This document shows positions 33,001-48,000 of a DNA stretch of 64,000 nucleotides, piece after piece (the first letter of the stretch is position 1; each line of letters starts with the position of its first letter). A program made the position numbers. The DNA lies in NCBI RefSeq assembly GCF_003334385.1, contig NZ_QOWN01000007.1, one strand, 5' to 3'. Source of the DNA: Escherichia coli (GTDB lineage Bacteria > Pseudomonadota > Gammaproteobacteria > Enterobacterales > Enterobacteriaceae).

Positions 33001-36000
33001 ACAAGCGCGATCCGAACCAGGGTACCTGCACCAACGCCTGCCGCTGGGAGTACAACGTCCAGGAAGGGAAAGAAGATGACGTTGGCAACATCGTACACAA
33101 GTACGAGCCGATTCCGGTGCAAAATGTTGAGCCGACGCTGGGTATCGGCGCGCCAACCGACAAAGTGTTTATGATCGAAGAAGCCCAGCGTCCGGGCGAG
33201 TATATGACCGCGTTTGAAGATGAGCACGGCACTTACATCATGAACTCGAAAGATCTGCGCGCCATCGCCCATGTAGAACGCCTGACCAAAATGGGCGTGC
33301 ATTCGCTGAAAATCGAAGGCCGTACTAAATCTTTCTACTATTGCGCACGCACCGCACAGGTTTACCGTAAAGCTATCGATGACGCCGCTGCGGGCAAACC
33401 GTTCGATACCAGCCTGCTGGAAACTCTGGAAGGTCTGGCGCATCGTGGCTATACCGAAGGTTTCCTGCGTCGTCATACTCACGACGATTATCAGAACTAC
33501 GAATACGGTTATTCAGTTTCTGACCGCCAGCAGTTTGTTGGTGAGTTTACCGGTGAGCGCAAGGGGGACCTCGCGGCGGTAGCGGTGAAAAATAAATTCT
33601 CCGTTGGCGACAGCCTTGAGCTGATGACGCCGCAAGGCAACATTAACTTTACCCTTGAGCACATGGAAAACGCCAAAGGTGAAGCGATGCCGGTCGCACC
33701 AGGCGATGGTTATACTGTGTGGCTCCCGGTCCCGCAGGATCTTGAGCTCAATTACGCTCTGCTGATGCGTAATTTCTCCGGGGAAACCACGCGTAACCCA
33801 CACGGTAAGTGATTAATTTCGATTATTTTTCCCGGATGGAAAATTCTTAGAAACCGATCACATACAGCTGCATTTATTAAGGTTATCATCCGTTTCGCTG
33901 AAAAACATAACCCATAAAATGCTAGCTGTACCAGGAACCACCTCCTTAGCCTGTGTAATCTCCCTTACACGGGCTTATTTTTTATGCATAAGCCCTATCC
34001 CTGGTCACCGTCTTCCATTGACCACATCGATAGAATCTCCCTTCATAGCACGATGCCTTTCACGTAACGGCATCGTGCTCGCACAGGTTCCGGCTAAGCA
34101 CAACCAGAACGCACATATTTGACGCTTACCAAAAAATATTCTCACTCTCCACATTTGAATGTCAGACGAGCGACACCATGTAATCCTACACCTTCTGTCT
34201 TCAGCTCAACTATTTGCATTTTTTTGCCCTGAGTAACACAGAAATGGGCTGCATCATTTTTTACTATATTTTCTGCACCAGATATTCTACCCCTGGCTAA
34301 AGAAGCTTCGGCTTCGGTGTAGTATTGGTTATCGAGTTTACGCTGAATATTACTTTTATATGCAAGGCCAAATTTACCGATACTTGTCTCATCATTATGC
34401 ACAGCACAACCAGACATAAGAAAAACACTAATTAATGATATAGCAGCTATTTTATTCACCTCACCTTCCCCCATTAAATACCAACGACACTCTCTAGTGT
34501 TTAAGTATAATAATGGCCGATCATTATAATTGAATAGGATTATAATAAATGTTTTGTACAACATTTCCTACATAAGTAGGAATTACAGACTCAGAGGCCC
34601 TTCCGGGTAACCCTATGGGAGCTTTAATATATTTGGAATAGTATATTGAAGATGCCACTGTTTAGTTGAATATTAGATATTTGCTCTTTTTTCAAATTTA
34701 CCGGTGGCTACCGTTAACATTCACTGCCCCCATTGCAAGCTCCTGGTGGTAACAACTGAATTACCCATGCTTGAACTGACTTTTTATCCTCCGACTTTCA
34801 TCCTGTTCTGACTCCACCTTTTGTTTTCTGCTCTACACTATCTACAGACCAATCATAAAGGCACATACGATCATGGCAGAATTTCCCGCCAGCTTACTGA
34901 TTCTTAATGGCAAAAGTACTGACAATCTACCCTTGCGCGAAGCAATTATGCTGTTGCGTGAGGAAGGAATGACGATCCATGTGCGGGTCACCTGGGAGAA
35001 AGGTGATGCCGCACGATTTGTAGAGGAGGCCCGGAAGTTGGGCGTCGCAACGGTGATTGCTGGAGGTGGCGATGGCACCATTAATGAAGTTTCTACGGCG
35101 TTGATTCAGTGTGAGGGGGATGACATACCCGCGCTGGGAATTTTACCATTAGGAACCGCCAATGATTTTGCCACCAGCGTAGGGATTCCTGAGGCACTGG
35201 ATAAGGCGCTGAAACTGGCAATTGCCGGTGACGCCATTGCGATAGATATGGCGCAGGTCAACAAACAAACCTGTTTTATTAATATGGCGACAGGCGGATT
35301 TGGGACGCGTATTACCACAGAAACGCCGGAAAAATTAAAAGCCGCGCTGGGTAGCGTCTCTTACATCATTCATGGCTTAATGCGTATGGATACTCTGCAA
35401 CCGGACCGTTGTGAAATCCGCGGTGAAAACTTTCACTGGCAAGGTGACGCCCTGGTCATTGGTATTGGTAACGGGCGTCAGGCCGGTGGCGGTCAGCAAT
35501 TGTGTCCGAACGCGTTAATTAACGATGGCTTGCTGCAACTGCGCATTTTTACCGGCGATGAAATACTTCCGGCTCTCGTATCAACCTTAAAATCTGACGA
35601 AGATAACCCGAATATTATCGAAGGCGCTTCGTCGTGGTTTGATATTCAGGCACCACACGACATCACCTTTAATCTTGATGGCGAACCGTTGAGTGGGCAA
35701 AATTTTCATATTGAAATACTTCCGGCAGCGTTGCGTTGCCGTCTGCCACCAGATTGCCCGCTTTTACGTTAAATAAAAGCAAGCGCAGAAGCAGGATTAG
35801 CAGACCGGCATCATCCCTGGGATCTTCTGCGCTCACCCTTTTTTGTTACGCAGCTACGGCTAACGCTGCCAGTAATTCATTCATCGATAAATATCTTGCA
35901 CTCGCCGCATTAAAGCAGGTTTGTTGGGCATCTTCTGATACCACAATGGTGTTTATTCCTGCCGCCTGTGCTGCCTGAAAACCACTCACGCTGTCCTCTA

Positions 36001-45000: not shown

Positions 45001-48000
45001 CTTCGCAGATCCTCATGCCAGAGCGGTAATTTGTGGCCTGGGTATGGAGCGAGATCTGGATAATTTACTCGCCTTGTATATCGCTGGATTATGCGGAATT
45101 GGTTATGGTCTGCGCCAAATTCTCGACGCTCAAACAGCGCAGGGAGTAGTGAGTAAAAATATCGTTATTAGCGGCGGTGCCGGGCAGCATCCACTGGTAC
45201 GACAAATTCTGGCAGATACCTGCGGTATTCCGGTCATTACCACGCAATGCTGCGAACCGGTTTTATTAGGCTCGGCCATTCTTGGTGCTGTCGCCGGAAA
45301 TATTGCACCTTCTGTTGGCGAAGCGATGCAACAATTCACCCATGTGGATAAATATTATTATCCGCAAGAACGCTATCAATCTCTTCATCATCGTCGATAT
45401 GAGGCCTATAAGCAGTTGCAGCATACTGCAAAATTACTCAGAGACTAATTAACCAGCCGCCTGACGCTGTTTTCAGGCAATCACTAATAACGACTCACTC
45501 CGGTAATATCCCGGAGTGCATTCATCTGCACCCTAAAAACGAGGTTTATATGTCCAGAAATAATAAACAGTGGTTGGGTTTGCCACTGCATCTGATATGG
45601 GGATATATCGCCATCGCAGTATTTATGACTGGTGATGGTTTCGAACTCGCATTCTTATCGCACTATATTAAATCGTTAGGCTTCACACCTGCGGAAGCCT
45701 CTTTTGCCTTTACGCTCTACGGCCTGGCGGCTGCCCTTTCCGCCTGGGTTTCTGGGGTAGTAGCGGAAATCATCACGCCGCAAAAAACCATGCTGATTGG
45801 TTTTGTCCTATGGTGCGTATTCCATGTTCTGTTTCTGGTCTTTGGATTAGGACAGGCAAACTATGGGTTAATCCTGCTGTTTTACGGGATTCGTGGTTTA
45901 GCGTATCCGCTATTTCTCTACTCATTTATCGTCGTTATTATTCATAACGTGCGTAGCGAAAATTCCAGTTCTGCTCTGGGTTGGTACTGGGCGGTATATT
46001 CAGTAGGGATCGGTGTTGCTGGCAGTTATATTCCCAGTTTTACGATACCGATTATGGGTGAAATGGGAACCTTATGGCTGGCACTGGCGTTCTGCTTTGC
46101 TGGCGGTGTCATTGCCATGATCTCCTTGCGTCATGTTAAAACGCCTGGACATATGCATAATTTAACTCCCCGTGAGAAGTTTGCAGAATTAAGTCGGGCA
46201 GTAACTTTACTTTATACCAACCGCAATATTTTTCTCTCCAGTATTGTGCGCATTATAAATACCTTATCGTTATTCGGTTTTGCGGTCATTATGCCAATGA
46301 TGTTTGTGGATGAACTGGGATTCACCACCTCTGAATGGTTGCAGGTCTGGGCGGCATTTTTCTTTACCACTATTTTCTCTAATATTTTTTGGGGGATTGT
46401 GGCAGAAAAAATGGGCTGGATGCGTGTTATTCGCTGGTTTGGTTGCCTCGGGATGGCAGCATCAAGTTTAGCGTTTTACTACATGCCGCAATACTTTGGT
46501 CACAACTACTGGATGGCAATGATTCCGGCGATTGCTCTGGGAACTTTTGTTGCTGCATTTGTGCCGATGGCCGCTGTCTTCCCGGCACTGGAACCAAAAC
46601 ACAAAGGTGCTGCAATCTCGGTTTACAACCTCTCTGCGGGTATGTCTAACTTCCTGGCTCCGGCAATTGCCGTGGTGTTATTACCGTGGTTTAGCACTAT
46701 CGGTGTGGTCATTGCCTATACAGCATTGTATCTATTGGCCTTTGTCCTTTGCGCATTCATTCGCGTTGAGCAGCCAGGATTCAGTTCTGCGCCAGTGACT
46801 GAGAAGGCATTGAATATCTCCTGAAAAACGAAACGCATCAGGCACTCATCCTCTCCCTCATGGGAGAGGATGATTTCACATCAGGCAATAGTGACTTTGT
46901 TATCGAGATAAACGTCCTGCACGGCGTTAATCAGTTTCACGCCGTCAGCCATCGATTTCTTAAATGCTTTCCGCCCCAGAATCAGCCCCATTCCGCCTGC
47001 GCGTTTGTTGATAACCGCAGTACGCACTGCATCGCTGAGGTCAGTTTCACCGCCCGCAGCACCGCCGGAGTTTATCAACCCAGCCCGACCCATATAGCAG
47101 TTAGCTAACTGATAACGCACCAGATCAATCGGGTTTTCGCTGGTCAATTTGCTGTAAACACGATCGTCGGTGTAACCGTAATTAATTGCTTTATAGCCGC
47201 CGTTATTTTCCGCCATTTTTTGTTTGACGATATCTGCACCGATGGTTGCCGCCAGATGGTTTGCCTGACCGGTCAGGTCGGCGGAAACATGGTAATCAAC
47301 GCCATCTTTCTTAAAGGCGGAGTTACGCAAATAGGCCCACAGCACTGTCACCATACCCAGCTCGTGCGCACGTTCAAAAGCCGCAGAAATTTCTTCAATC
47401 TGGCGACGTGACTCTTCCGAGCCAAAATAGATAGTCGCACCAACCGCAACCGCGCCCATGTTGAACGCCTGCTCCACGCTGGCATACAGCGTTTGATCGT
47501 AGGTATTCGGGTAACTTAGCGTCTCGTTGTGATTAAGTTTGACGAGGAATGGAATGCGATGCGCATAACGCCGCGATACCGACGCCAGCACGCCGTAAGT
47601 TGACGCCACACAGTTACAGCCCGCTTCGATCGCCAGTTCAACAATGTTTTTCGGGTCAAAGTAGAGCGGGTTAGCAGCAAATGAAGCTCCGGCAGAGTGC
47701 TCAACGCCCTGGTCAACCGGCAGAATAGAAAGATATCCTGTGCCAGCCAGACGCCCGGTGTTGTACAACGTCTGCATATTACGTAACACCGCTGGCGGGC
47801 GATTATTGTCAATCATTACGCGGTCTACGTAGTCATGTCCGGGGAGATAAAGCTGGTCAGAAGGAATTGTCATACAACGGTGCTGTAAAAGGTTGTCGGC
47901 GTCTTTGCCAAGCAACTGCGCAATATCTGTCATTACTATGCTCCCGTAAATTCCGATTGGATATCGGCTATGGATTGTCCTGGCCCGCCTTTTGCGGGCA

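Follow-up and report, generated by a model that had tools for sequence, protein, structure and literature searches.

A dal/rbt pentitol cassette of the E. coli C type between yegS and fbaB, very probably an intact allele spread by homologous recombination

Operons for the use of two pentitols, ribitol and D-arabitol, are known as rtl and atl from Escherichia coli C (Reiner, 1975; Link & Reiner, 1983; both as cited in PMC9393557, PMC6805351 and PMC2806823), where use of both sugar alcohols was mapped (PMC6805351), and as rbt and dal from Klebsiella pneumoniae and K. aerogenes (Heuel et al., 1998, as cited in PMC12307932 and PMC5156309). Here we describe their counterpart between yegS and fbaB in a 64,000-nucleotide (nt) stretch of E. 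coli DNA (contig NZ_QOWN01000007.1 of assembly GCF_003334385.1; the whole stretch is called the window below). The locus is this already known system, whose 'genotypic exclusion' with the galactitol (gat) operon has been published together with its exceptions; our analysis adds the breakpoints at base level, a measure of how far the two E. coli alleles have diverged, frequencies in a survey of 5,426 complete E. coli genomes, and a conserved, uncharacterised phosphatase gene.

We consider it very probable that the locus is an intact E. coli C-type rtl/atl (equivalent to Klebsiella rbt/dal) pentitol cassette that fills the yegS-fbaB interval, that it is not a mobile element, and that homologous recombination, with crossovers in the 3' portions of yegS and fbaB, spreads it within E. 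coli. An earlier note on this DNA had placed a pentitol island at 35846-46880 between the two genes, with two outward-reading operons, a SorC-type DalR and a LacI-type RbtR. The open reading frames (ORFs), family scans and annotation agree with this layout throughout, in gene coordinates, order, orientation and regulator types. The yegS stop (35772) and the fbaB stop (46881) are separated by 11,107 bp, with nine intact genes inside, and this gene set is the one on which the ORF listing, the family scans and the annotation of a 99.995%-identical record (E. coli WP7-S17-ESBL-04) agree. The genes and flanks, with functions as predicted from family membership, are as follows (aa, amino acids).

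35770-35772, plus strand: yegS stop codon, left flank
35846-36499, minus strand: HAD hydrolase, 217 aa
36544-37821, minus strand: dalT, 425 aa, D-arabitol MFS permease
37890-39353, minus strand: dalK, 487 aa, D-xylulokinase
39367-40734, minus strand: dalD, 455 aa, D-arabinitol 4-dehydrogenase
40947-41888, plus strand: dalR, 313 aa, SorC-family repressor
41891-42922, minus strand: rbtR, 343 aa, GTG start, LacI/FruR-type repressor
43084-43833, plus strand: rbtD, 249 aa, ribitol 2-dehydrogenase (SDR)
43844-45448, plus strand: rbtK, 534 aa, D-ribulokinase
45550-46824, plus strand: rbtT, 424 aa, ribitol MFS permease
46881-46883, minus strand: fbaB stop codon, right flank

The two regulator genes are convergent, since only 2 nt lie between their stops. 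The locus of E. coli C is the same allele, with 6 single-nucleotide polymorphisms (SNPs) over 11,107 bp and identical junctions to yegS and fbaB. Of the nine proteins, seven share their RefSeq WP accession with E. coli C, while DalK and RbtR are allelic variants, and we see no difference of substance. The earlier note had ascribed the same architecture to E. coli C and B lineages, which is right for E. coli C. For E. coli B it does not stand: REL606 has gat, with an insertion sequence (IS), IS1, in gatZ, at this slot, in agreement with the title of Reiner (1975), which speaks of 'absence in K-12 and B strains' (as it appears in the reference list of PMC9393557), and we therefore regard 'B lineages' as a slip.

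The junctions show how the cassette relates to gat. In the gat-type strain O84:H7 Trh52, gatR-D-C-B-A-Z-Y lies between yegS and fbaB. BLAST homology of this strain with the window breaks off exactly at the yegS stop codon (35772) and starts again at 46880, one base before the fbaB stop, so that 11,107 bp in the window replace 6,637 bp of the gat strain, intergenic spacers included; the spacers of the gat strain carry repetitive extragenic palindromic (REP) elements, whereas those of the window carry simple hairpins. The whole window holds no gat DNA except two REP-like fragments, and no IS1; in the near-identical WP7-S17-ESBL-04 record, there is no IS or integrase in the 64 kb from wzc to metG. 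Comparison with the gat-type strain also located variants linked to the cassette just inside the two flanking genes, at 35739-35766 and 46893-46998, which define its two edges.

35739-35772, plus strand: last 34 nt at the 3' end of yegS, left edge of the co-inherited cassette
46881-46998, minus strand: 3' end of fbaB, right edge of the co-inherited cassette

At the left edge, 8 differences from gat-type E. coli fall within 35739-35766, and none is found at 35179-35738 against O84:H7; all 8 are synonymous, as the window and the gat strain both read PPDCPLLR. At the right edge, the last 119 nt of fbaB hold 11 such differences, several of them 3 nt apart, and beyond 46998 the window fbaB is 100% identical to that of O84:H7. 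The co-inherited unit is thus 35739-46998. The island of the enterotoxigenic E. coli (ETEC) strain H10407 shows 13 differences from the window in 11.1 kb and has both clusters of edge variants, and its flanks are REL606-like at 34927-35385 and from 47055 on, with 1-2% divergence from the window (about 6% around yegR). Its crossovers accordingly lie within yegS at 35386-35738 and within fbaB at 46999-47054. Two other carriers have at least 33 kb of identical flank, followed by a switch of background. The edge-linked variants, the H10407 crossovers and these background switches together argue for allelic exchange of the cassette through homologous recombination. The reading of the locus as an allelic replacement free of mobility genes, put forward in the earlier note, is borne out: the gat strain shares both stop codons, the breakpoints lie inside yegS and fbaB, and neither an IS nor an integrase is seen.

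In the survey, the island interior matches 336 genomes at 338 places, all chromosomal, with 309 genomes at 99% identity or more and 27 at about 82%. The window-type allele is therefore present in about 6% of E. coli (309/5,426), and the gat interior matches 5,112 of the 5,426 genomes. When the tandem interval of O55:H7, in which a diverged dal/rbt allele stands beside gat, was used as a query, its REP-like repeats matched every genome (median 6 places), and only the count at 80% coverage or more (27 genomes) was kept; the count of genomes with either locus was redone with a REP-free chimeric query of dalK and gatD. This chimera matched 5,408 genomes at 5,438 places, with both parts in 30 genomes and neither part in 18. 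Since 27 of the 30 two-place genomes have the tandem dal/rbt and gat haplotype, no more than 3 of about 308 genomes could combine the window-type allele with gat, an almost perfect exclusion. Mutual exclusion with gat, as claimed earlier, is hence a strong tendency of the window-type allele, but it is not a rule for the pathway, as 27 of the 5,426 genomes carry the diverged allele beside gat. The window-type allele is also close to monomorphic: judged by bit score, divergence over some 300 carriers is about 0.15% at most, compared with 1-5% for gat. Two strains, PSS-08-2 and VE-V11-M, carry IS1-mediated derivatives of the window-type island, one being an inversion or deletion that spares only the HAD gene beside yegS and a piece of rbtT beside fbaB, the other a deletion that spans dalR to yegT.

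The two E. coli dal/rbt alleles are about 17% apart in nucleotides, almost as far as either one is from Citrobacter koseri (about 20%) and as far as Klebsiella is from Raoultella. We found no published statement of how deeply these two alleles have diverged. A neighbour-joining tree places them as sisters and otherwise roughly follows taxonomy. Our search for a donor, by a scan of genome contigs and an RbtK cluster search, gave C. koseri as the closest at 84% and returned no Escherichia species besides E. coli; in the cluster search, which covered 5.8 billion protein clusters, the next RbtK after the E. coli cluster at 100% was that of the second E. coli allele at 85%. E. fergusonii, an adonitol-positive species, was not among the species returned.

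These observations bear on whether the allele came from outside. It could be the ancestral state of Escherichia, inherited vertically without import from another lineage, with gat-only strains as the derived condition. The yegS-dal/rbt-fbaB arrangement is common to other Enterobacteriaceae, the gene tree resembles the species tree with the E. coli alleles as sisters, and no closer donor appeared among the protein clusters, all of which would fit such descent. However, the allele is almost monomorphic over its carriers when gat is not, its flanking 3' ends look foreign (8 differences in 34 nt for yegS and 11 in 119 nt for fbaB) inside otherwise typical E. coli flanks, and the flank backgrounds differ among carrier strains. 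We therefore judge vertical descent rather unlikely, because near-monomorphy, foreign-looking edges and varied flanks fit better with a single recent introduction followed by recombinational spread. Under such an introduction, the allele would have come into E. coli a single time and rather recently, from a relative as yet unsampled in which yegS and fbaB flanked dal/rbt and gat was missing, and would later have spread by recombination.

The family evidence, with matches much stronger than chance would give, points to two parallel pentitol pathways. DalD scores 755.7 bits against the D-arabinitol 4-dehydrogenase equivalog of NCBIfam (NF043014, cutoff 600), and DalK, whose gene starts 13 nt after dalD, scores 636 bits against the XylB equivalog TIGR01312 (cutoff 380). 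On the other side, RbtK reaches 919.7 bits against the FGGY pentulose kinase model TIGR01315 (cutoff 408.7), and RbtD aligns at 486 bits and about 88% identity, along its full 249 aa, with PDB 9x6o, a 'Ribitol 2-dehydrogenase'. Each operon has one of two paralogous permeases, DalT (513.9 bits) and RbtT (514.7 bits), which both pass the RbtT/DalT/CsbX family model TIGR00897 (cutoff 375) and share 361 of 425 positions (85%, BLASTP). DalR has a Pfam Sugar-bind domain (PF04198, E = 2.8e-51) and an N-terminal helix-turn-helix. The top NCBIfam matches of RbtR are LacI-family models, the best being TIGR02417 at 155 bits, and the Prokaryotic Genome Annotation Pipeline (PGAP) labels it a LacI family regulator. 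Compared with the two permeases of Klebsiella or Raoultella, DalT and RbtT each match one about as well as the other (84-88%), leaving no cross-genus orthology signal, and gene conversion between the inverted paralogues may account for this.

From family membership and the genetics of Klebsiella and E. coli C, DalT would import D-arabitol, DalD would oxidise it to D-xylulose and DalK would make D-xylulose-5-phosphate; likewise, RbtT would import ribitol, RbtD would oxidise it to D-ribulose and RbtK would make D-ribulose-5-phosphate. Both products would feed the pentose-phosphate pathway. Each operon would read outward from its divergent control region and be repressed by its own regulator, DalR or RbtR. 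The control regions and the hairpins at the two ends of the island are listed here (no strand is assigned unless one is given).

40735-40946: divergent dalD/dalR control region, with two conserved direct-repeat boxes of 15 nt each
40802-40816: direct-repeat box ATCACAAAAGAACAA, candidate DalR or CRP site
40829-40843: direct-repeat box ATTACAAATGACCAA, candidate DalR or CRP site
42923-43083: divergent rbtR/rbtD control region, holding the palindrome CTGCTTCATCGATTGAGCAG at 42979-42998
35783-35844, plus strand: inverted repeat GCGCAGAAG...CTTCTGCGC with a T run after it, in the spacer of the convergent yegS and HAD genes, a probable terminator
46847-46872: hairpin CATCCTCTCCC-TCAT-GGGAGAGGATG, between the convergent rbtT and fbaB

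Phylogenetic footprinting found the dalD/dalR boxes conserved over 10 taxa and the palindrome core ATCGATTGAGC invariant over 11, with a second, inverted copy of the palindrome in Klebsiella and Raoultella. The palindrome CTGCTTCATCGATTGAGCAG resembles FruR-type operators, and the site at 42979-42998 is probably the RbtR operator. A search of Rfam gave no known RNA inside the island.

The dal operon closes with the HAD gene, a conserved and uncharacterised fourth dal gene. Its product matches HxpB best among NCBIfam models, at 171.6 bits and thus under the cutoff of 191, and it aligns with PDB 1te2 (YniC) at 102 bits, with the DMDG, S/T, K and ED catalytic motifs all in register. By these matches it is predicted to be a HAD-IA sugar-phosphate phosphatase related to HxpB/YniC, and not an HxpB ortholog. 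The gene has its own GAGGAA ribosome-binding site, with a weak hairpin between dalT and it, and it lies 3' of dalT in practically all of the dal operons that we examined from Enterobacteriaceae and Vibrio. Joint transcription with dalDKT is probable.

Several points weigh against so tidy a picture. A promoter scan of the locus returned fewer sigma-70-like sites than shuffled sequence did, and none in either control region. NCBIfam has no dedicated model for RbtR or DalR, so both fall under the curated cutoffs of all its specific equivalogs. Their presumed effectors, D-ribulose and D-arabitol, are therefore borrowed from the genetics of Klebsiella. Function, pentitol growth and inducibility included, is predicted from homology and from near identity to E. 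coli C, which is Rtl+ Atl+. The HAD gene also evolves much faster than its neighbours, with 48-65% cross-genus identity compared with 72-94%, and it is frameshifted in both H10407 and VE-V11-M; given this rate and these frameshifts, it may be dispensable. As a role for its product, we can offer only the speculation that it might act as a safety valve, hydrolysing dead-end pentitol phosphates or excess pentulose-5-phosphate. What suggests this is the set of catalytic motifs, the ribosome-binding site of its own, the position after dalT, and the toxicity of D-arabitol for gat-positive cells, as reported in PMC5094792 with reference to Reiner (1977).

A bolder synthesis would join these threads. 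In it, 'genotypic exclusion' would be a property of one young allele, recently imported from an unsampled Escherichia-like lineage and spreading because it removes gat, and the HAD protein would be a dedicated pentitol-phosphate detoxifier that buffers cross-talk and lets the older, 17%-diverged allele coexist with gat. Spread by removal of gat is made plausible by published work, in which loss of gat was adaptive in the mouse gut and D-arabitol proved toxic for gat-positive cells; as a whole, we think this synthesis unlikely to be right.

It is very unlikely that the locus, although present, has decayed in function in the window strain. Decay does occur in relatives: H10407 has the HAD frameshift and an internal stop in dalT (both at 19074-21048 in its own locus numbering) in an island otherwise 99.9% identical to that of the window, which may mean that this lineage is losing its D-arabitol branch; VE-V11-M and PSS-08-2 have the IS1 deletions; and rbtR, rbtD and rbtK are pseudogenes in the enteropathogenic E. 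coli (EPEC) E2348/69 group. In the window, however, all nine ORFs are full length, and the near-identical WP7-S17-ESBL-04 record has no pseudogene flags there. Seven proteins are identical in accession to those of E. coli C, with DalK and RbtR being allelic variants under other accessions, and the conserved control-region motifs are intact.

A repeat search found one large repeat in the locus, an inverted repeat with arms of 1,256 nt that are 78% complementary.

36589-37844: left arm of the inverted repeat, dalT coding sequence
45527-46782: right arm of the inverted repeat, rbtT coding sequence

This 1.26-kb repeat brackets almost the whole island, and the locus is found in only about 6% of E. 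coli, as might be expected of a composite transposon or mobile genomic island brought to yegS-fbaB by terminal inverted repeats. In the early 1980s, inverted repeats around the E. coli C genes were reportedly seen and taken as a hint of a transposon. The arms, however, are the paralogous permease genes themselves, whose proteins are 85% identical. No transposase, integrase or IS is present in the island or the window, the junctions have no direct repeats, and the boundaries are graded recombination breakpoints within the flanking genes instead of sharp ends. There is at most one chromosomal copy per genome and none on a plasmid, every inspected copy lies at yegS-fbaB, and other genera hold the locus in the same slot. 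With dalT against rbtT as the only large inverted repeat, no mobility genes and a uniform location, we rejected a transposon origin, which we regard as highly improbable.

We give hardly any credence to the idea that the genes serve another polyol (sorbitol, mannitol, xylitol or L-arabitol) and that the dal/rbt names are over-annotation: DalD does also match models of mannitol-1-phosphate dehydrogenase and fructuronate reductase, RbtD matches hundreds of SDR models and DalK is annotated xylB, but these alternative matches lie far under the curated cutoffs, the DalD, XylB, pentulose-kinase and RbtT/DalT models are all passed, RbtD is close to a crystallised ribitol 2-dehydrogenase, and the locus is 99.95% identical to that of E. 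coli C, where ribitol and D-arabitol use was mapped.

Read as an intact cassette of the E. coli C type, the locus has a direct consequence for annotation: the strain is predicted to be ribitol-positive, D-arabitol-positive and galactitol-negative. Whether a strain uses pentitols or galactitol is a classical trait in biotyping and a difference in carbon source that matters for its niche. For evolution, the locus is a clean example of an 11-kb metabolic cassette that occupies a core interval in the manner of an allele, and its breakpoints could be narrowed down to a few hundred bases inside the flanking genes. Only two points go beyond the textbook, namely the conserved uncharacterised phosphatase in the dal operon, and the existence of two E. 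coli alleles that have diverged like genera and have opposite linkage to gat.

Elsewhere in the window, within 33895-34900, the CyaR small RNA (33895-33980) is followed by the low-GC (0.41) yegR region, a hot spot of SNPs that differs from REL606 and H10407 at 58-59 positions per kb; REL606 has a P2-like prophage between yegQ and yegR. Two Sib antitoxin RNAs (Rfam) at 20087-20564 mark ibs/sib type I toxin-antitoxin repeats. The near-identical WP7-S17-ESBL-04 record has three annotated Ibs toxins, and the window aligns there with an overlapping repeat, so the copy number of Ibs/Sib varies between strains. A JUMPstart element in the wza (colanic acid) region (4225-4263, minus strand) and a thiamine pyrophosphate (TPP) riboswitch ahead of thiMD (54705-54801, minus strand) are standard features.

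The comparison with known systems beyond E. coli C started from a scan for DalD in one genome per bacterial species, which gave 58 loci, followed by tblastn of the nine proteins together with YegS and FbaB. K. pneumoniae ATCC 13883 has rbtT-rbtK-rbtD / rbtR / dalR / dalD-dalK-dalT-HAD in the order and orientation of the window. The likeness to the Klebsiella Dal and Rbt proteins proposed in the earlier note thus holds gene by gene, at 73-88% protein identity (DalD 85%, DalK 84%, DalT 86%, DalR 83%, RbtD 88%, RbtT 87%, RbtR 75%, RbtK 73%), with the HAD protein at 61%. The Klebsiella locus is at about 23-25% nucleotide divergence from the window and keeps the palindrome of the rbt operator, but Klebsiella and Raoultella differ in having a longer rbtR-rbtD spacer. 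Raoultella ornithinolytica has the gene order of the window, flanked by yegS at the dal end and by fbaB at the rbt end. Both flanks are also found at the dal/rbt loci of Enterobacter sp. 10-1, Superficieibacter and C. koseri, and fbaB is seen on the rbt side in Klebsiella spallanzanii, K. oxytoca, K. indica and Leclercia. Since the yegS-fbaB slot is common to several genera, it is not an insertion point specific to E. coli.

Within E. coli, the tandem haplotype (O55:H7 strains CB9615 and DEC5A; EPEC E2348/69 and relatives), published for O55:H7 in 2010 (PMC2806823), has HAD-dalTKD-dalR-rbtR-rbtDK beside yegS, in the slot and order of the window; in DEC5A, this second allele lies at 8997-18717 of its own locus numbering. 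It differs from the window by about 17% nucleotide divergence and the lack of rbtT, with gatR directly after rbtK. A complete gat operon is always present (27 of 27 genomes), and yegS has the 3' end that is usual in E. coli. DEC5A also has a ParD (frameshifted)/ParE toxin-antitoxin pair between yegP and yegQ (4985-5580, own locus numbering), which is absent from the window. Finally, gatRDCBAZY of K-12 and B occupies the same yegS-fbaB interval and is likewise a sugar-alcohol pathway, but it consists of unrelated genes (a phosphotransferase system transporter, galactitol-1-phosphate dehydrogenase and tagatose-bisphosphate aldolase), has REP elements at both junctions, and shares no similarity with the window locus beyond REP fragments.

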